DNA of 59,516 nt from the NCBI RefSeq assembly GCF_004010195.1, contig NC_057719.1:20978138-21037653 (forward strand), in the 5' to 3' direction. Shown here in pieces: positions 6,660 through 58,010 of this stretch. The DNA is from Chiloscyllium plagiosum (lineage: Eukaryota). Every line of letters starts with the position of its first letter. Position 1 is the stretch's first letter. Below the pieces are notes generated by a model that saw only the letters and a list, made by a program, of their open reading frames with translations, ran no database searches and was not told where the DNA came from. A program made the position numbers and the translations under genes.

Positions 6660-6905
6660 AAAGTGGAACAGTCTGTACTGGTAATACTCAGCATGTCAAG
6701 TAGCAGCTGGAGAGCAACAAGAATTGGTGTTTTAGGTCAATGACCTTTTGTCAGAACTGGAAAGCATCCTGAAGAAAAGGAATGTTGGATTTGGAAAGTT
6801 AAATCTATTTCTCTGCACAGATGTTTCCAAACTTCAGAGTATCTCCACAACTTTGAGTTTTTTTTAAATTTCAGATTTATGACACCTGCAGTATTTTGCT
6901 TTTAT
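6660..6905. mobile_element. Old palindromic (head-to-head) Penelope-like pLTR pair
   Basis: The left half is an inverted copy (…aggtcaatgaccttttgtcagaact) and the right half a forward copy (cctgaagaaaagg…atttctctgcacagatg…ctgcagtattttgctttt). Same layout as 40659-40910. Confidence 0.6.
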
Positions 6906-7400: not shown

Positions 7401-7974
7401 CTGCTGCTCACAATATAAATTCAAGGAGGTAGTAGAGGAGGTGGGAGCAGGGGGTGAGAATGTGAGTCCCTGCCTCAGGAAGGTGATTTCTATGTAAATC
7501 AGGTACAGTACAGCTGGAGAAGTGCAACATTTTAATTCACAGTTCACCCTTGTACGTAAACTAGAAGCTACCCCTTTGTGACAAATCTTCATTTGCGCGC
7601 AAAAACATTTTAAAATAATTAATTTCATTTCTTGCAAAAACTTTAGCTATTGAAAACATTAATGTGGGATTTGGAAAAATACTGCATTGCTGCAAGGAAT
7701 AACCAGAAAATCCTATGCTGCTTGCAATGAGTTATGGAGTGATGTTGTGTAATAAATTAGGGCCCATTAAACACCACCAGTAATATCCATCATGATTCCA
7801 GACCCTCAGAGATACCCGCTCTCAGTGAAATAATAGGCCAAATTTTATGGTCCCTAAAACACAGCCCAGCACCTAAACGTTAAATACAGGCACATGTCGC
7901 TGCGTTGACAATATGTTGTTACCGGTCAGTCTCAGACGTTACGGAGGGCCAGGGTTCATCGTATGTTAGGCCTA

Positions 7975-8469
7975 CCATTCCAGGGTTCACAAGGATGATC
8001 CCTGGAATGGTAGGCCTAACATACGATGAACAGTTGAGGATCCTGAGATTGTATTCGTTAGAGTTCAGAAGGCTGAGGGGAGATCTAATAGAAATTTACA
8101 AGATAATGCATGGCTTAGAAAGGATGGATGCTGGGAAATTGTTTTCATCAGGTGGGGATACTAGGGCTCGTGGGCAGAGCCTTAGAATTAGAAGGGTCAC
8201 TTTAAAATGGAAATGAAGAGACATTTCTTCAGCCAGAGAATGGTGGACCTGTAGAATACACTACCATGGAGCTCAGTGGAGGCCGAGACGTTAAACATCT
8301 TTAAGGCTGAGATTGATAAATTCTTATTCTCGCAAGGAATTAAGTGATATGGGGAGAGTGCGGGTAAGTGGCGTTAAAATGCCCATCAGCCATGATCGAA
8401 TGGAGGAGTGGACTCGATGGGCCAAATGGCCTTACTTCCATTCCTATTGCTTACGCTCTCATGGTCTTA
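7975..8469 (+). mobile_element. CR1 LINE 3' fragment
   Basis: FTRMIPGM...YSLEFRRLRGDLIEIYKI; CR1 3' UTR and degenerate tail. Confidence 0.85.
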
Positions 8470-9000: not shown

Positions 9001-9935
9001 TGGTAAAAACAATGACTGCAGATGCTGGAAACCAGATTCTGGATTAGTGGTGCTGGAAGAGCACAGCAGTTCAGGCAGCATCCGAGGAGCAGTAAAATCG
9101 ACGTTTCGGGCAAAAGCCCTTCATCAGGAATAAANNNNNNNNNNNNNNNNNNNNNNNNNNNNNNNNNNNNNNNNNNNNNNNNNNNNNNNNNNNNNNNNNN
9201 NNNNNNNNNNNNNNNNNNNNNNNNNNNNNNNNNNNNNNNNNNNNNNNNNNNNNNNNNNNNNNNNNNNNNNNNNNNNNNNNNNNNNNNNNNNNNNNNNNNN
9301 NNNNNNNNNNNNNNNNNNNNNNNNNNNNNNNNNNNNNNNNNNNNNNNNNNNNNNNNNNNNNNNNNNNNNNNNNNNNNNNNNNNNNNNNNNNNNNNNNNNN
9401 NNNNNNNNNNNNNNNNNNNNNNNNNNNNNNNNNNNNNNNNNNNNNNNNNNNNNNNNNNNNNNNNNNNNNNNNNNNNNNNNNNNNNNNNNNGGAAGGTGCC
9501 AGGATGGGAGGGTGGGTTGTAGGGGGGGCGTGGACCTGACCAGGTAATCACGGAGGGAACGGTCTTTGCGGAAGGCGGAAAGGGGTGGGGAGGGAAATAT
9601 ATCCCTGGTGGTGGGGTCGTTTTGGAGGTGGCGGAAATGTCGGCGGATGATTTGGTTTATGTGAAGGTTGATAGGGTGGAAGGTGAGCACCAGGGGCGTT
9701 CTGTCCTTGTTACGGTTGGAGGGGTGGGGTCTGAGGGCGGAGGTGCGGGATGTGGACGAGATGCGTTGGAGGGCATCTTTAACCATTTGGGAAGGGAAAT
9801 TGCGGTCTCTAAAGAAGGAGGCCATCTGGTGTGTTCTGTGGCGGAACTGGTCCATCTGGGAGCAGATACGGCAGAGGTGGAGGAATTGGGAGTATGGAAT
9901 GGCATTTTTGCAAGAGGTAGGGTGGGAAGAGGTGA
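9001..9935 (-). mobile_element. Penelope-like element (family A): RT C-terminus/linker, N gap, pLTR with hammerhead
   Basis: ORF 9124-9855: MASFFRDRNFPS...RTPLVLTFHP...PPLSAFRKDRSLRDYLVRS. Hammerhead motif at 9098-9129. Confidence 0.9.
9098..9129 (-). ncRNA. Minimal type-I hammerhead ribozyme motif
   Basis: Minus strand reads tc-CTGATGA-a-GGGC-tttt-GCCC-GAAAC-GTC^ga, an intact catalytic core. Confidence 0.75.
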
Positions 9936-13930: not shown

Positions 13931-14589
13931 ACCTGCGCCCACACCTCCTCTCTCACCTCCATCCAAGGCCCCAAAGGAGCCTTCCACATCCATCAAAGTT
14001 TTACCTGCACATCCACCAATATCATTTATTGTATCCGTTGCTTCCGATGCGGTCTCCACGACATTGGGGAGACTGGACGCCTCCTAGCAGAGCACTTTAG
14101 GGAACAAATCTGGGACACCCGCACCAATCAACCACACCGCCCCGTGGCCCAACGTTTCAGCTCCCTCTCCCACTCTGCCGCGGACATGGAGGTCCTGGGC
14201 CTCCTTCACCGCCGCTCCCTCACCACCNNNNNNNNNNNNNNNNNNNNNNNNNNNNNNNNNNNNNNNNNNNNNNNNNNNNNNNNNNNNNNCTACCTGCCCA
14301 GCTCCTTTTCCACCTATCCACTCCACCCTCTCCTCCTTGACCTATCATCTTCATCCCCTCCCCCACTCACCCATTGTACTCTATGCTACTTTCTCCCCAC
14401 CCCTACCCTCCTCTCATTTGTCTCTCCAACCTTCAGGCACTCTGCCTGTATTCCTGATGAAGGGCTTTTGCCCGAAACGTCGATTTTCCTGCTCCTCGTG
14501 TGCTGCCTGAACTGCTGTGCTCTTCCAGCACCACTCTAATCTAAACTCTGGCTTCCAGCATCTGCAGCCATTGTTTTTACCTAGCTGAA
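13931..14589 (+). mobile_element. Penelope-like element (family A, Neptune-like): GIY-YIG endonuclease plus pLTR
   Basis: Translation from 13931: TCAHT...FTCTSTNIIYCIRCFRCGLHDIGETGRLLAEHFRE... (degenerate GIY-YIG). 10-bp TSD TGTACCCTAA at 13921-13930 and 14590-14599. Confidence 0.9.
14452..14483 (+). ncRNA. Minimal type-I hammerhead ribozyme motif
   Basis: tc-CTGATGA-a-GGGC-tttt-GCCC-GAAAC-GTC^ga; core intact. Confidence 0.75.
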
Positions 14590-24819: not shown

Positions 24820-25095
24820 GATAAGTAGACCTTGTTTCGATATTTCATCTGAAAGACAGTATTTTCAACACTGCTGCTCTCTCTCTAGAGTGCAATGGAA
24901 TGCCAGTGTCGAAAAGTGTGGCTCTGGAAAAGCACAGCAGGTAAGGCAGCATCTGAGGAGCAGGAGATTCGATATTTCAGGCATAAGCCCTTCATCAGGA
25001 ATGTCAGGTGTAGATTGTTGTATTGAAGCCCCACAAAGGGACTTGGGCCCAGAACTTTGCAACTCAGTTGCAAGAGTGCGACTGACTGTGCCATG
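24820..25095 (-). mobile_element. Old Deu-domain SINE (SacSINE1/AmnSINE-like) with a nested short Penelope insert
   Basis: Minus strand: tRNA-like head, then ctgacattccattgcactctagagagagagcagcagtgttgaaaatactgtctttcagatgaaat, resembling the recalled Deu core. Confidence 0.55.
24910..25002 (-). mobile_element. About 90-bp Penelope pLTR insert carrying a hammerhead motif (24967-25002)
   Basis: Minus strand ATTC-CTGATGA-a-GGGC-ttat-GCCT-GAAAT-ATC^GAAT. Imperfect TSD ggaatgccagtgt / ggaatgtcaggtgt. Confidence 0.75.
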
Positions 25096-33412: not shown

Positions 33413-33546
33413 AGTTCTGAAGAAGAGTCATACCAGACTCAAAATGTTAACTCTGTTCTCTCTTCGCAGATTTTACTAGGCCTGTTAAGTTTCTTCAGCA
33501 TTCCCTGTGTTTGTTTCAGGTTTCCAGAATCTGCAGTTCCCTTTTA
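33413..33546 (+). mobile_element. Penelope-like family B pLTR fragment with decayed hammerhead
   Basis: agtt-CTGAAGA-a-GAGTC-atacca-GACTC-AAAATGTT-aact; the G of GAAA is mutated. Confidence 0.7.
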
Positions 33547-34094
33547 TGAAACGCATAAAGGTGAGATTGTCTGACCTTTCCACATTACCTGTTGCCCTTC
33601 GTTGCCTGTATTATTGCTGTTTGAAAGAAACCAAGCCAATACTTGAGTCCCCAAGTTGCTCTGTCAGAATGAATTAAGCTGAATCCCCATGGTTGTAAGT
33701 AGAAGTTTGAAAGTTCTATAGAATTCCCTTTTTTCCAACTCAACATATAGGTCAATTGTCATACTTCCTGGATTCAGACAACAGCTACTTATACACATAG
33801 TTACTTAAACCCACCCGTTCAAACATGTTATGACACACACATAGGACTTGAATGTTTATCTCCTGGCTCAGAGGTAAGGGCACTACTACTGTACCACAAA
33901 ATCTTTATTTGCATTTACATAGTGATTGTAACTTAAACAAAAATTACCCAATATACTTCGCATGCACTTCACAAAAATATGTTTGGTGGACTCTGCAACC
34001 AAAAACTTTGCTAAAGTGATGAGACTTAAGTAACAGTTTAAATGAGATAATCAGATAAAGGGACAGAGAGATTTAGGGAGGGATTTCTAAAGAA

Positions 34095-39281: not shown

Positions 39282-40462
39282 GGAATAGAGTGGCGCTGGA
39301 AAAGCACAGCAGTTAAGGCAGCATCAGGCAGGAAAATCGACGTTTTGGGCAAAAGCCCTTCATCAGGAATACAGGCAGAGTGCCAGAAGAGTGGAGAGAT
39401 AAATGAGAGGAGGGTGGGGGTGGGGAGAAAGTAGCATAGGGTACAAGAGGTATGTGNNNNNNNNNNNNNNNNNNNNNNNNNNNNNNNNNNNNNNNNNNNN
39501 NNNNNNNNNNNNNNNNNNNNNNNNNNNNNNNNNNNNNNNNNNNNNNNNNNNNNNNNNNNNNNNNNNNNNNNNNNNNNNNNNNNNNNNNNNNNNNNNNNNN
39601 NNNNNNNNNNNNNNNNNNNNNNNNNNNNNNNNNNNNNNNNNNNNNNNNNNNNNNNNNNNNNNNNNNNNNNNNNNNNNNNNNNNNNNNNNNNNNNNNNNNN
39701 NNNNNNNNNNNNNNNNNNNNNNNNNNNNNNNNNNNNNNNNNNNNNNNNNNNNNNNNNNNNNNNNNNNNNNNNNNNNNNNNNNNNNNNNNNNNNNNNNNNN
39801 NNNNNNNNNNNNNNNNNNNNNNNNNNNNNNNNNNNNNNNNNNNNNNNNNNNNNNNNNNNNNNNNNNNNNNNNNNNNNNNNNNNNNNNNNNNNNNNNNNNN
39901 NNNNNNNNNNNNNNNNNNNNNNNNNNNNNNNNNNNNNNNNNNNNNNNNNNNNATGTCGGCGGATGGTTTGGTTTATGCGAAGGTTGGTAGGGTGGAAGGT
40001 GAGCACCAGGGGTGTTCTGTCCTTGTTGCGGTTGGAGGGGTTGGGTCTGAGGGCGGAGGTGCGGGATGTGGATGAGATGCGTTGGAGGGCATCTTTAACC
40101 ACGTGGGAGGGGAAATTGCGGTCTCTAAAGAAGGAGGCCATGGTGTTCTATGGTGGAACTGCTCCTCCTGGGAGCAGATACGGCGGAGGCGGAGGAATTG
40201 GGAATACGGGATGGCATTTTTGCAAGAGATAGGGTGGGAAGAGGTGTAATCCAGGTAGCTGTGGGAGTCAGTGGGTTTGTAAAAAATGTCAGTGTCAAGT
40301 CGGTCGTCATTAATGGAGATGGATAGGTCCAGGAAGGGGAGGGAGTTGTCAGAGATGGTCCAGGTAAATTTAAGGTCAGGGTGGAATGTGTTGGTGAAGT
40401 TGATGAATTGCTCAACCTCCTCGTGGGAGCATAAAGTGGCACCAATGCAGTCATCGCTGTCG
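39282..40462 (-). mobile_element. Penelope-like element (family A): RT, N gap, pLTR
   Basis: DDCIGA...HPDLKFT...LPFLDL...YKPTDSHSYLDYTSSHP..CKNAIPYSQFLRLRRICS. The hammerhead at about 39337-39369 has GAAA changed to AAAA. Confidence 0.92.
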
Positions 40463-40658
40463 CGGCCTGGTATTTCTGGCTGAGTGTCATGGTGTATAAA
40501 GACAAGACAAGGATATTGTGAGTGTTCAAGTAAGTTCAATCAACCTGGAGATGCAGCTTGATCAAGCCTGTGAGCTGGGTTTGTGTTCCAAAGCATTAAG
40601 CATCAGCATCATAATGATAATTGCTGGCACTTCCTGAGGTCCAGCATTGAAATGCAGA

Positions 40659-40910
40659 ATAAAAACTGAGAGAATTGTGGATGCTGAAATCAGAAACAAA
40701 AACAGAAGTTGCTGGAAAGATTCAGCAGGTCTGGCAGTATCTGTGAAGAGAAATCAGAATTAATGTTGCGGGTTCCGGTGACCCTGGCTCAGAACTTGTT
40801 TCTCAGTTCTGAGGAAGGATCACCAGGATCCGAAACATTAACTCTGATTTCACTTTTCAGGTGCTGCCAGACCTGCTGAGCATTGCCAGCAACTTCTGTT
40901 GTTGTTTTTG
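40659..40910. mobile_element. Palindromic Penelope family B insertion with opposed hammerheads
   Basis: 13-bp TSD ATTGAAATGCAGA at 40646-40658 and 40911-40923. Inverted halves meet at about 40800. Plus-strand motif AGTT-CTGAGGA-a-GGATC-accag-GATCC-GAAAC-ATT-AACT at 40805-40843. Confidence 0.85.
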
Positions 40911-42045
40911 ATTGAAATGCAGAGGCTCACTGTCAGTGAAAGGGAGATGTACATTGAGTGTTCACAGAGGTTGGCACATGTCAGATGCCAATGGTCGCAG
41001 ACATGAGGTGCATGTGGCCAGTGCTCGGGGAGCACATGCTGTGATGTCAGTGCAGTAGTTCCCACATAAAGGTCGATCGAAGCAAGTGGGGGTTGAATCT
41101 GCCAGGTGCTCATGCTGGATTCCTTCTCAGGTTTCCCTAATATCTCGTCTGACTGGGAAGGTGAGAGACTGAATAGTGTCATTAACAAGCGATAATCAAA
41201 GTCAATTACCAACCTGCTGCTGCCTACACAGAATCTCATTATGCATCTTGTGAACAGCGTTAAGATGGATCGAGATGATCTTGATGCCAAGATGGGCTTC
41301 ACTGTAGTTGTTGCCTGACTCTGCAATACACCTCACCATAGATCCCTGTCAGATTCCATCCCAATAGCTTTATAAGTGATTTAGATTTTATGAATAAAGG
41401 GCACCATTCCCACCTTGCTTTGTCTTTTTGCACCATGATAACGGAAAATATCAAACATAATTAGCTTGCCGATGGATCTTGTGGAAAAAAACATCAGACC
41501 AGATTTTGTGCGGACTAATGATCCAGTTCCTGTGCTGTCATATTCTATGGTTTTTATTTTCCAGCTCATTTAAAGTGCCAGCTCATCTCAATCACATACA
41601 GACATGTTGTCAAACATAGTCTTGCTCATCATTTCTTTCTGTCTTTGAGTTAGAAGTAAATATTGTTTCATATACATCTCAATTTTTACTTTGGAGTATT
41701 CTCCACATCATTTAATTCATTAATTTCCACAATCCACCTCCCATAGGTCATTTACACCATATTTAGTCGATTTAACAAGTTCTGATCTATTCTGTAAGCA
41801 TCGTGCATGGCTACAGGACTAAGGAACATTTACAGAACAAGAAATTACCATTCTAGCTATGTTCTTCACCAGTCCTTCTTTGTTAGAACCATTTACAATA
41901 CGTTTAATATTTCTATATTTTTCTGCATGGACTTATATTTTACACAACATTAAATACTAAACAAGTTACCCATAAAGCATGCAAGGGACTCTCTCAAATA
42001 ATCCCAGTGTAAAAGCGTCCCATGCTTCAACAACAGTATATGAAG

Positions 42046-48691: not shown

Positions 48692-48778
48692 GGTTTTGAG
48701 GAAGGGTCGCTGGACCCGAAAAATTAACTCTGATTTCTCTTCACAGATGCTGCACTTTTCCAGCAATTTCTGATTTTG
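48692..48778 (+). mobile_element. Penelope family B pLTR fragment, decayed hammerhead
   Basis: TTGAGGA-a-GGGTC-gctg-GACCC-GAAAAATT-aact. Confidence 0.7.
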
Positions 48779-51117
48779 TGGGCTGAAATTTTATTCTTTG
48801 GTTTGGATGTGCATATTTGTCAACTCTGTAAATATCAATTAATCTACATAAATATTGGTTCCAGTTCGATCCTTCTGGCTTTCTGGAACAGGACAATGAA
48901 AAATCAAAATTTCCATCTCCATGTGGCAAGATAAAGGATTTTCCCAAGAATCAGTTGTACAGTGGACAGAAGTTTTAAATTTCACTTACCATTTTAAATC
49001 TGATCAATGTTCCTGCAAAAAAACAATTTGTTTTAAATTTAATCCTGATCACAACCCTGGAGTTGCTACCCACATGTCAGAATTCATAATAGTAAAAATG
49101 CTGAATGACTTACAATTAAAACAGAGAATTTTACCACCTCATTAATTTGCAATTTGTAGTAGACCAATCTGTACCAATTGCACATAGATGTTTTGACCTT
49201 ATTTCTATCATAACTTCATTTTGTAACTAAAAGAAAATAAATTACATAATAATGACATTGCTAACATTTTGACTGTAAAATATACATGTCGTGAGGGGAA
49301 ACAGTTAATTTTGTATTCTGGTGTAAGTCAAAGCTTTAGTGTTAACAAGCATCTAGTAGAATCATCAAGAGGATCTTAGGGATTAATATGACATCAGAAA
49401 GGAACAGATACTAGGTATTTGATCATGAACTTCTTTTCCTCGCGCATAATCGCACCAAGAAGAATAAAGACCCAATCAAAATTCTAGGAAAGGCAGATGG
49501 AGAGATTATCTGATAATAAAACATAGAAATGTTTAACCCCAGGTTCAAAGTATATGTTGAAATAAAATAAAACCTTCAACAGTTTTTTTTATTTTTCTGA
49601 TCCCTTGCTATTTGACATTGTAAACGATTCCAGCTCAATAATTGCTGCTCCCTTTTAAAACCACTGTCATTACCCATCTCCTGAAGAAATAACATCCATG
49701 TGTTCTCAGACTTTACAAACTCCTGCACCTATCACAAACCTGTCCTCCTCCTCAAGTAATTGCATGTATCATCACCTCCCAATTCTGAACTATCTTTCCA
49801 GTAAGTCTATACAGATCTCCAGTCCAGTCTCAGTGCTGAATTTGTCCAGTTCAATCATGAATTAGATTCTCTGTGCCTGTGACCATGATAAATGTGCTCA
49901 CCTCATTCTCCGATTTCAGACAGTGTTTTTGTGATGACCAGGCTCCATATGCATCCTGACCTGACAACCCCCAGCCCATCCATCTGACACCCGTATAACA
50001 TGAACGCCGAACAATCTGACCCCATCCAATTCAACAACTCTCCTCCCGCCTCCACTGACACCCTTTCCATGCTCCCCTTACTCTTGAGCCTCCCAAAACC
50101 CATGCAACATTGCCCCGAAACCAACCCCTACCAACAGCCTCCAAATATTCCCTAATTGTGCTTGGCCAATGCCACCATCAGCCCATGCCACCTTACTCCC
50201 TTACCCACTCAGTAGCCTAACCATTCATCTACATGACATGCTAGCCCCTTACCCACCCACCTGCCACCCTAACCCTTCCCTCACATACAACCCAACCTTC
50301 CTACCCACCTGACATCCAGAGCATCACAAACCCACTTGGCACCTTACTCCTTTACCCAACCAGTTTCCAAGGTATCTTTTCACTACTTGCCACCAACCTC
50401 CTCAGCCATTATATTATCTTCTCTCCGTGCTTTATCAAAGCGCATTCAACACCTCTAATGACAAAAAACAGCAGCTAGTGTTGAAAAACGTGAGCCAATG
50501 ATGATCCCTGCACTTTACTGGAAGACCCCCAGAATGGGTAAGCCCCACATTTCTCAAGTTGCCCAGTTGGGAAGGCTGGCGAAGAAATGCTGAACCTTGG
50601 GCAAGGCAAGAGAGAAAGAGTGGAGTGCCAATGGACGATGAATGCCATTGTTTAGGAGACTCGACTCTGTACATTATAACTGATAAGGCACATATTGTGT
50701 TTAAATCTGAGAGCACACTGGGATGCTCCTTATACAATAATGATTCAGGTTAGGAACATCTGTTTGTTTAACTCTCAAATAAAGGAATCAAGGAACAATC
50801 CACCTTTATGAATTTGAAACACCGTGCAGAGGCACAATTGTTATGGTGTGAATGGATTTAACTCCTGAACTCTTAAGACGTTTGAAATGAAATTCTGAAA
50901 TTAGATTTAGATTACTGGCATTAACATACAAAGCTGATATCAAAAAGTAGATTATCACAAATTAACAGCAGATTGTGGCTTGGTATTGGGGATTTATGAG
51001 TACCAGATTTGGATTTATCTGGCAAAATAGACCTTTTCTAGTTTTTGTAGCCCAAATATTTGCACATTTTCAACAATATTCCAATTTTGGCAGAGTATTT
51101 TTCTATTGATGTACTTT

Positions 51118-53192: not shown

Positions 53193-53750
53193 GTTTGTGC
53201 GAAGATTTGTAGCTCGGGTGCTCGTTGCTGTGGTTCTGTTCGCCGAGCTGGAAGTTTTTGTTGCAAACGTTTCATCCCCTGGCTAGGCGACATCATCAGT
53301 GCTTGGGAGCCTCCTGCGTAGCGCTTCTTTGATGTTTCCTCCGGTGTTTATAGTGTAAACTATAAACTACACTATAAACACCGGAGGAAACATCAAAGAA
53401 GCACTTCGCAGGAGGCTCCCAAGCACTGATGATGTAGCCTAGCCAGGGNNACTGGGACAACATTACTATCATAGGGCAAGCCAGACAGAGAACAGCCAGA
53501 GAATTCCTAGAGGCATGGCATTCATCCACAAACTCCATCAACAAACACATCGACCTGGACCCAATATACCAACCACTACAGCGGACAACTGAAACTGACA
53601 ACCGGAAGCGGCAGGGACAGACCACTATAAACACTGGAGGAAACATCAAAGAAGCGCTTCGCAGGAGGCTCCCAAGCACTGATGATGTCGCCTAGCCGGG
53701 GACGAAACGTTTGCAACAAAAACTTCCAGCTCGGCGAACAGAACCACAAC
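53193..53750. mobile_element. Penelope-like family C insertion: inverted pLTR, partial pLTR, GIY-YIG C-terminus, pLTR
   Basis: 12-bp TSD AAATATGCCAAC at 53181-53192 and 53751-53762. Plus-strand WDNITIIGQARQRTAREFLEAWHSSTNSINKHIDLDPIY. Hammerheads at 53263-53302 (-), 53423-53448 (+, runs into NN) and 53676-53714 (+). Confidence 0.9.
53676..53714 (+). ncRNA. Minimal type-I hammerhead ribozyme motif (family C)
   Basis: GCA-CTGATGA-t-GTC-gcctagccggg-GAC-GAAAC-GTT^TGC, with stems I and II paired. Confidence 0.78.
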
Positions 53751-54139
53751 AAATATGCCAACTCCTGAATATGATACCATTGTGTAACATGTTGCAGATG
53801 GTGCATCAGACTGCCTATAATGTACACTACTCTGATAGGCCATTATACTTTCAACATAATTTCCTGACTATTGTATATTTGAATATTAGTCAAATGTTAA
53901 CCATCAACAATGGATGAGGCAACGCTCTTTTCTGAGCATGCATATCTTTATACAGTAATGTTTAGTTTGCAAGGAAATGTTCTTTTTTGAACACATTTGA
54001 GACTGCAGCTAAGGATAATTATATAAATCAGTCAACCCAAAAACCTTGTGCAATTAGCACATGACCTGTCTAATGAGATTTACACCAGCTTTTAACTGTT
54101 TACAATTGGTTTTCCCGTTATACAAAACATAGCCCCAAA

Positions 54140-55989: not shown

Positions 55990-58010
55990 AGGGGGCAGAG
56001 TGAGTGTAGTGGTTATCATTAAGGAGAAGGTGCTGGGGAAACTGAAAGATATGAAGGTAGATAAATCACCCAAATAAACTACATCCCAGACTTCTGAAGG
56101 AGATAACTGAGGAGATTGCAGAGGTACTGGTGGTGACATTTCAGGATTCATTGAAGTTGGGGAGAGTCCCAGAGGGCTGGAAAATAACCAGTATAACACC
56201 CCTGTTTAAGAAGGGACAGAGAGAGAAGATGGGAATTTACAGGCCCATTAGCTTGACTTTGGTCATTGGTAAAATTTCAGACTCCATTATTAAGAACGAG
56301 ATTGCAGAGCACTTGGAAGAGCATGGTAAAATAGGACTGAATCAGTATGGCTTTGTAAAGGGGAGGCTATGCATGAGAAATTTGTTAGAATTCTAAATAA
56401 AAACTGAAAGAACCGCGGATGCTGGAAATCAGAAAAAACCCCAGAAATTACTGGAAAATCTCAGCAGGACTGGCTGCATCTGTGAAGATTAATCATAGTG
56501 AACAGGTCGTGGTCTGGTAATCCTTCCTCAGGCAGTGTTCTGAGGAAAGGGCACTGAACCCTGAAATAATAACTCTGATTTCTTTGAGCTTTTTCAGCAA
56601 TTTATGTTTTTATTAGGATTCTTCTTGTGGCAGTAATGAGCAAGTTAGACAAATCATAGAATCCATACAGTGTGGAAGCATGCCATTCAGTCCAGTGAAT
56701 CCGCAATGACCCTCCAAAGAGCATCCCACCCAGAACTACCCTATACCTGCATTTCCAATGGCTAATCCACCAAACCTGCACATCCCTGGACACTACGGGC
56801 AATTTACCATGGCCAGTCCATCTAACCTGCATACCTTTGGATTGTGGGAGGAAACCCGAGCACCTGGAGGAAATCCACGTAGACACAAGGAGAATGTGCA
56901 AACTCCACACAGACAGTCTCCTGAGGGTGGAATCAAACCTGGATCCCTGGTGCTAACCACAGAGCCAACATGCCATCTGATGGCAGCCAGGATTTCCTGA
57001 AGACTTTAGCCACACAGGAGGCTGCTAAATAAAATGAGGCCATGTTGTTGAGGGTAAGATACTGGCATGGATAGGAGTTGGCCAACTGGCAGAAGGCAGA
57101 GAGTATAGATAAAGAGGTCATTTTCAAGATGGCAATTGGTAGTAGTAGTGTTTCACGGGAGTCAGTATAGGGACCACAACTATTCAGGTTATCTATCAAG
57201 GATCTGGATAAAGGAACTGTGGGCATCGTTGCTAAGCTTGCAGATGATGCAAAGATATTTGGAGGAACAGGTCGTGTTGAGGAAGCATGGAGCCTGCAGA
57301 AGGATTTGGACAGGCTAGGAGAGTGGGCAAAATGTGGCAGGTAGAATACAATATGTGAAACTATGAGTCATGCATTTTGGTAGGAAGAATAGAGGAACAG
57401 ACTGTTTTCGAAATGGAGAAAGGTTTCAGAAATCTGAATCACAAAGGGACTTGGGAGCCCTAGTTCAGGATTCTCATAAGGTTAGCATGAAGGTTCAATT
57501 CACAGTTATGAAGGCAAATGCAATGTTAGCATTCATTTTGAGAGCACTACAATATAATAACAGGGATGTACTGCTGAGGTTCTGATAAGGCTCTGTTCCT
57601 GGGGATGAAGCGCTTGTCATGTTGAACAGCTCTGGGTCTGTACTCGATGGAGTTTAGAAGGATGTTGGGGAGTCTGATAAATTTTACAGAATACTTTGAG
57701 GCCTGGTTAGAGTGAATGTGGAGAAGGTGTTCCCACTTGTGGAACAGACTTGGACCCAAGGGCACAGCCTCTGAGTAAACAGACAACCCTTCAGAACTGA
57801 GATGAAGAGCAATTTCATGAATCAAACTCATTGTTGTAGAAGGCTGTGGAGGACAAATCATTGGGTGTATTTAAGACACAGATAGATAGGTTCTTTATTA
57901 GTCAGGGGATCAAGGGTTACGAGCAGAAGGCAGGAAAATTGGGTTGAGAAACATGGTGGAGCAGTTTAAGTGGGTCAAAAGGCCTAATTCTGCTCCATAT
58001 GTTATGATCT
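55990..58010 (+). mobile_element. CR1 ORF2 with nested Penelope palindrome (56395-56612) and HE1-like SINE (56652-56975, -)
   Basis: VPEGWKITSITPLFKKG...YRPISLT; MHFGRKNRG...QRDLGALV. Confidence 0.85.
56395..56612. mobile_element. Palindromic Penelope family B insertion
   Basis: TSD TTAGAATTCT / TTAGGATTCT (56385-56394, 56613-56622). Halves meet at ...ttcctcag-gcagtgtt-ctgaggaa; stem II AGGG/CCCT. Confidence 0.78.

Follow-up and report, generated by a model that had tools for sequence, protein, structure and literature searches.

Head-to-head inverted pLTRs, a tail, TSDs and pairs of hammerhead motifs on opposite strands are already published features of Penelope-like elements (PLEs), and the palindrome described here is of a known kind. 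In Schistosoma, dual minimal hammerheads lie on opposite strands, 100-700 bp apart (PMC4209133). Non-LTR retrozymes are built of head-to-tail tandem units with canonical ribozymes of one polarity, from which circular RNAs are released (PMC7229834; bioRxiv 10.64898/2026.07.22.740005). The PLE protein of an anole cuts and extends both strands in vitro, and its reverse transcription has two internal start sites, which delimit the tail, with no need for ribozyme cleavage (PMC11167929). The origin of head-to-head inverted PLE ends is stated to be open in three papers (PMC3846280, PMC8557442, PMC11167929). Our survey of the literature, which left most subscription journals, Repbase and Dfam outside its coverage, found no account of bare palindromes of PLEs in sharks, nor of two joined cDNAs combined with a limit at the start site. 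A palindromic Penelope-derived vertebrate entry may be held in Repbase or Dfam.

The palindrome lies in a stretch of 59,516 nucleotides of Chiloscyllium plagiosum (contig NC_057719.1), hereafter the window. It spans about 250 bases and is bracketed by a perfect 13-bp TSD on the plus strand, with copies at 40646-40658 and 40911-40923, an exact repeat that an earlier note on this DNA had reported and that we recovered. Two inverted arms at 40688-40796 and 40805-40913, 109 nt each and 83% complementary, are separated by a junction spacer of 8 nt (40797-40804), which comparison of copies shows to be copy-specific. The profile and the inverted-repeat search define a tail-bearing arm on the minus strand (40688-40796), whose start is the initiator-like A at 40796, and a tail-less arm on the plus strand (40805-40910), both being PLE pLTR ends. 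The tail, a one-sided extension of the PLE end by 29 bp (40659-40687, minus strand), is found on the left arm and not on the other, with the inverted repeat beginning at 40688; in profile positions, the tail arm runs to 136-137 and the other arm ends at about 105-110. The complete hairpin folds at -142.9 kcal/mol (z = -17 against 200 shuffles). The inverted pLTR halves do stand head to head, as the earlier note had it, but they meet about 4 nt upstream of the hammerhead cores and not at the cores themselves. Each arm copies the pLTR end of the element, and one TSD encloses the pair; on the outside the arms finish at the two standard ends of a PLE, one with the tail and one lacking it, and their inner ends stop at, or just within, the start of the hammerhead. 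The palindrome is an old, dead and decayed by-product of the insertion of a Penelope-type element.

The plus arm opens with a minimal type-I hammerhead motif (40805-40843, plus strand; helix I of 4 bp, core from 40809) that retains CUGAnGA, the extra nucleotide, a helix II of 5 bp and GAAA. A core that had been called near-intact is indeed preserved in its boxes and in helix II, but helix III and the triplet have decayed, the palindromic ACGU of helix III being now ACAU and the triplet reading AUU. The motif predicts a cut after 40839. The minus half had rightly been described as decayed: in its motif (40758-40796, minus strand), G8, A9 and the GAAA box are mutated, and no core match was found on that strand. 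A ribozyme motif on each strand had also been claimed, but the core matches on the plus strand only in each of the three palindromic copies of the window. Where a hammerhead motif does occur on both strands, palindromy by itself accounts for it.

Motif checks and a constrained fold place a minimal type-I hammerhead in the pLTR of the family. Within the palindrome, the core is predicted to have an unpaired probability of about 0 on either strand, and the ribozyme fold can be imposed only at a cost of 33 kcal/mol in the palindrome, versus 1.3 in the arm alone; in the predicted fold, the antisense arm is transcribed first on either strand and then pairs with the core. These models suggest that the ribozyme is a passenger, sequestered inside the palindrome, whose activity would not be required. 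An Rfam scan of the window returned no hammerhead family, since minimal motifs fall outside the Rfam models, together with two weak matches to miRNA models on hairpins. An inverted repeat at 7954-8031 (36 bp, 97% complementary, with a 6-nt loop) has a weak miRNA-model match below threshold and stands in sequence that we take to resemble a CR1 fragment.

The parent of the arm was read from long copies. One of them (L041), from one arbitrary stretch of the genome, contains in order the end of an ORF, a 3' UTR, a TATA-like box, an initiator-like motif and the same arm, a layout with which a second long copy (L051) agrees. Genome-wide, the upstream part of L041 has 3800 candidates and its ORF end of 65 aa has 29373. 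This ORF end was not recognised directly by Pfam and the ESM Atlas, and a first homologue search returned no match; by way of a cleaner relative, in whose search two of the five matches were unrelated, it matches the C-terminus of shark RT + GIY-YIG proteins (44% over 41 aa, E = 3e-10). RVT_1 lies below the cut-off in the matched shark proteins and GIY-YIG above it in one of four, and GIY-YIG is present in 46% of the best Atlas cluster for the intermediate protein. Because the long-copy ORF end matches RT/GIY-YIG proteins, the arm reads as the pLTR end of an endonuclease-positive PLE, a parent recognised indirectly, by ORF ends; among the copies read, no whole ORF of the family was seen. The Penelope-like origin and the minimal type-I hammerheads proposed earlier are upheld by these ORF ends, by the motif check and by the constrained fold. 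In shark proteins related to the family, a cysteine motif lies between RT and EN, a Neptune-like trait by the description in PMC8557442. One protein, P0004, carries a PLE endonuclease fragment (residues 457-499) as the C-terminus of a predicted seven-transmembrane receptor, a fusion that is likely a gene-model error or an exonised repeat.

A DNA search of the 3.56-Gb assembly with the palindrome gave 3884 candidates, 40 of which were scored. Copies picked by similarity to the palindrome at 40646-40923 (30 extracted, 3 duplicates dropped) provided 27 distinct loci that align across the whole layout and differ by about 10% from their own consensus, a divergence that marks the family as old. TSDs of 8-15 bp flank 12 of these 27 copies, versus 1 of 702 mismatched flank pairs, and the one-sided tail is alike among them. 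Rare variants are common to both arms of one copy in 9 of 92 cases versus 2.1 expected, a figure equally compatible with a single source RNA or locus, with fold-back and with gene conversion. At arm position 15 (L001-L029), a helix II variant is present in 11 of the 27 tail-less arms and absent from all 27 tail arms, a skew that probably reflects selection by the query; in the window copy, this variant is compensated on the opposite strand of the helix.

Scanned with the arm profile, 20 arbitrary 10-kb stretches (191.5 kb unmasked) yielded 52 matches of this and related families, among them 10 head-to-head pairs, long copies and solo arms. At about one palindrome per 19 kb, the three found in 58 kb of the window equal the genome average, and local enrichment was rejected. 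As a rough estimate from 10 pairs in 191.5 kb, the genome may hold on the order of 10^5 such junctions. The b-region of L047 contains a short repeat that matches both strands at the same place in L002, L031, L034 and L036, and likewise in L039, L045, L046, L049 and L050; it is apparently another palindromic family, outside the arm profile. An RNA run (X20), compared with positions 39800-41800, gave 1008 reads across the whole stretch, none of them at least 99% alike; a few per cent of this single-cell poly(A) library were read, and the reads showed no pile-up of starts or ends, with family reads on both strands, a coverage too thin to bear on a start site or on circles; a second run (X21) gave no reads.

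The second palindrome of the same family (56395-56612) has the layout and the TSD ascribed to it earlier: the duplication (56385-56394 and 56613-56622) measures 10 bp with one mismatch, the spacer is 0 nt, the plus arm bears an internal deletion, and the feature as a whole spans 56385-56622. The third copy (6660-6905) shares the architecture, as had been noted, with its tail on the plus arm, but profile and alignment identify it as an older diverged relative, 65% alike to the palindrome at 40646-40923 and with its own arms 76% alike; a search for exact TSDs of at least 6 bp found none there. The spacers of the three palindromes measure 8, 0 and 8 nt and differ in their letters, and the claim of one same junction in three insertions fails on this count. 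Solo arms also occur. One of a related family, with tail, starts at the same initiator-like position (33413-33548, plus strand by profile), and a tail-less one of the same family as 40646-40923 (48692-48790, plus strand) has a candidate 16-bp TSD with three mismatches; five solo arms were searched for TSDs, with a single weak candidate as the outcome.

Other PLEs in the window provide context. A second family with hammerheads, whose triplet is GUC, has arms at 9011-9131, 14450-14568, 24924-25002 and 39295-39370, and two of the four carry a long upstream UTR. A young PLE of another family, with 96% arm identity, occupies 53200-53753 and comprises an inverted pLTR with tail, the start of a direct pLTR, an endonuclease-like ORF end and a further pLTR, whose minimal hammerhead near 53679 looks intact. 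The head-to-head junction of this element, at 53357-53368, falls on a TATA-like motif some 60 nt upstream of the ribozyme. The element also contains a gap of two Ns (53449-53450), possibly an assembly join. The sequence at 56690-56900 resembles a shark V-SINE in reverse orientation.

Junctions vary considerably from copy to copy. Spacers are distinct in 26 of the 27 aligned copies, and 18 spacer lengths occur among 44 exact double-core palindromes (centres of 0-30 nt, two duplicate pairs included, the pattern requiring arms that reach +2). With anchors placed below the cut site and gap classes spanning 0-90, anchored junctions genome-wide number 55, 477 and 279 for gaps of 0-30, 31-60 and 61-90 (controls 0), which, like the other genome-wide pattern counts given here, are exact-pattern lower bounds and favour less-decayed copies. 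Two whole hammerheads need about 67 nt; at least 532 of the 811 junctions are too short for them, so that in about two thirds at least one is trimmed. Gap lengths peak at 42-43, 47-48 and 67 among the first 50 listed per class, and by eye these peaks fall where the arm start and helix II share a short overlap. The tail arm is whole in 58 and trimmed in 81 junctions (p 0.06 versus equal), with the same gap peaks in both, the tail having been scored on one arm per junction in lists that each contain some duplicates and have two elements in common; post-insertion erosion of centres, if real, would blunt this test. One copy with arms 97% identical (L042) is already trimmed, and it is the sole near-identical-armed copy that shows early trimming. 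Spacer fillers resemble junction-near arm sequence (88 versus 78.5 for shuffles; p 0.004, n 20), a 1-nt centre is present in 9 of the 44 double-core palindromes, and recurrent junctions occur in both orientations.

Spacers vary in this way, yet the tabulated junction positions are non-random and have a sharp upstream limit. Judged by eye, 86 of the 88 arm ends of the 44 double-core palindromes fall between -3 and +2 of the initiator-like A. Centres of 31-60 nt add only 10 further palindromes, in which, again by eye, upstream long-form sequence of 6-20 nt is present on both arms in five and on one arm in one, none of these extensions reaching the TATA box. Exact TATAAA-to-hammerhead matches number 404 genome-wide (control 0), with the first T at -29 in 16 of the 21 long copies tallied first, and the junction limit lies about 29 nt below this TATA motif. 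Several solo arms likewise start at the initiator-like position. A TATA-to-start spacing of about -29 matches that of RNA polymerase II promoters. The second family counts 901 double-core palindromes, whose short varied centres, among the first 50 listed, mirror 3-6 subfamily-specific upstream letters; canonical TATA is absent from its long copies, 15 of 16 of which share a conserved AT-rich motif between -30 and -36. The limit falls 4-10 nt above the core in both families. Among described elements, rotifer pLTRs have a TATA box 20 bp from the initiator (PMC3846280) and Penelope of D. virilis has a TATA-less internal promoter (PMC2377424).

Motif reading and the promoter consensus suggest that the limit sits at the TATA/initiator-predicted start of the RNA and not at the cleavage site. 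A stereotyped switch at the ribozyme, one suggestion of the earlier note, is right about a stereotyped junction region, but the limit does not lie at the ribozyme cut. A model with junctions at the cleavage site was rejected, only 55 of 811 junctions belonging to the shortest class and both arms starting at the cut in 1 of the first 50 listed. The inner limit is not universal, as the young PLE at 53200-53753 joins well above its hammerhead (one case, beside an assembly gap).

We consider it reasonably probable that the palindrome is the dead product of an endonuclease-positive PLE in which two cDNAs, primed on both nicked strands, were joined, such products being built anew at each insertion. 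The RNA of the element would start at the initiator, 29 nt below the TATA-like box and 4 nt before the hammerhead core. The protein would nick both target strands about 8-15 bp apart and prime reverse transcription on each, at two internal sites about 105 and about 137 nt from the RNA 5' end (upstream pLTR). Both cDNAs would pass the uncleaved hammerhead and run off the 5' end of the RNA in a 'strong-stop'-like manner, and their free 3' ends would be joined by microhomology or a short templated filler, one arm often being trimmed. The two classes of outer end, with and without tail, would be explained by RT start sites primed at both ends, and the template would be uncleaved RNA, since the arms contain the whole ribozyme. 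The second family shows similar palindromes, which we count in favour of the joining of two cDNAs. More tentatively, and at somewhat less than even chances, the palindromes may record a general PLE intermediate, in which a protein dimer, acting on both nicked strands, primes two strong-stop-like cDNAs whose template is the 5' pLTR of an uncleaved, capped transcript. If this were true, two short cDNAs joined would give the bare palindrome, and a short and a long one the classic inverted-pLTR element; inverted pLTRs and the one-sided tail would be explained by sense RNA only, without antisense self-priming, and the hammerhead would lie at the very 5' end of the mRNA.

Fold-back or antisense self-priming, in which one cDNA or antisense RNA folds at the RNA end and copies itself and the tail results from endonuclease resolution, appears unlikely to us, although it is the published reading of head-to-head PLE palindromes (PMC3846280; for the tail, PMC8557442) and accounts for the shared rare variants, the microhomology peaks and the snap-back-like fillers. 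If the tail-primed strand had folded back, the tail arm should be whole, yet it is trimmed in 81 of 139 junctions, and the two outer ends correspond to the two classes of RT start, a match that two-ended priming explains directly.

De novo origin of each palindrome could also be combined with an inner limit set by a splice acceptor at helix I, or by release or template switching of the RT at the folded hammerhead, a combination that we find decidedly improbable. Just upstream of the arm, long copies contain a branch-point-like motif, a pyrimidine tract and two AG dinucleotides, and a splice acceptor is an alternative landmark because the intron of D. virilis Penelope ends at hammerhead helix I (PMC4209133). 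The constant position of the limit, 4-10 nt above the core in both families, suits this reading, as do 9 of the 50 first-listed short junctions, which by eye pair a whole arm with an arm that starts from the predicted cut. However, most arms keep the AG, often with 1-3 further upstream letters, and the spacers hold no common first-exon sequence; a folded RNA should stall RT at its 3' edge and not once it has been unwound, and cut-site junctions make up about 1% of the 811, with 4-nt microhomology too.

Copying as a unit, by a non-autonomous palindromic element of retrozyme or viroid-like type whose centres were later rearranged by hairpin instability, is very improbable. Constant length and layout, recurrent junction classes such as the 1-nt centre and the arm-specific variant of the short arms (probably query selection) speak for it, but some centres include upstream long-form sequence (6-20 nt, on one arm or on both), the second family mirrors its subfamily-specific upstream letters, and recurrent junctions run in both orientations; furthermore, no tandem head-to-tail units were found, the core is predicted to be buried on both strands, and a single cut in a monomer could not free a unit. 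The discrete two-polarity family envisaged in the earlier note is at odds with the distinct spacers, the trimmed junctions and the predicted burial of the core, and a unit copied from a master with a shared internal junction was rejected on the near uniqueness of the spacers. A viroid-like ambisense ribozyme RNA was likewise rejected, the motifs being mirror copies of which the minus one is dead here and one is trimmed in about two thirds of junctions.

These palindromes are of value as data on how PLEs copy themselves, and not on viroid-like RNA. The sharp inner limit and the two-sided trimming lead to a concrete model that is testable in an existing purified-protein assay. They also call for caution, as both-strand hammerhead motifs in genomic palindromes are not evidence of viroid-like RNAs. 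Intronic hairpins this numerous could be a large source of dsRNA.

In LINE-1 twin priming, the second target strand primes a second cDNA and an inversion with microhomology results; there, unlike here, second priming takes place at scattered positions inside the element, and what is inverted does not mirror the 3' end. Non-LTR retrozymes are also non-coding, PLE-derived and endowed with a type-I hammerhead (PMC7229834; bioRxiv 10.64898/2026.07.22.740005), but the palindrome at 40646-40923 is a head-to-head pair with one minimal, sequestered motif per strand and no tandem units. The dual hammerheads of Schistosoma differ as well, in that here the two motifs abut and pair mutually and the window copies are decayed. 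Metazoan PLE minimal type-I hammerheads (PMC4209133) have the same extra nucleotide between 9 and 10.1, the G10.1-C11.1 pair, a short helix I and the palindromic two-pair helix III seen in the family. Poseidon PAc of the anole (PMC11167929) agrees in vitro in the cutting and extension of both strands, in two internal RT starts that bound the tail and lie little over 100 nt below the hammerhead, and in dispensable cleavage; it belongs to another clade, and the available part of the paper describes neither the joining of two cDNAs nor a 5' run-off limit. Endonuclease-positive PLEs (PMC3846280; PMC8557442) share head-to-head inverted pLTRs, a 30-40-bp tail on one end, a TSD of 8-10 bp, TATA/initiator-like pLTR motifs and a parent with RT and C-terminal GIY-YIG, whereas the palindromes described here have no ORF between the repeats, consist of just the 105- and 137-nt ends, show a sharp inner limit and number roughly 10^5 per genome.
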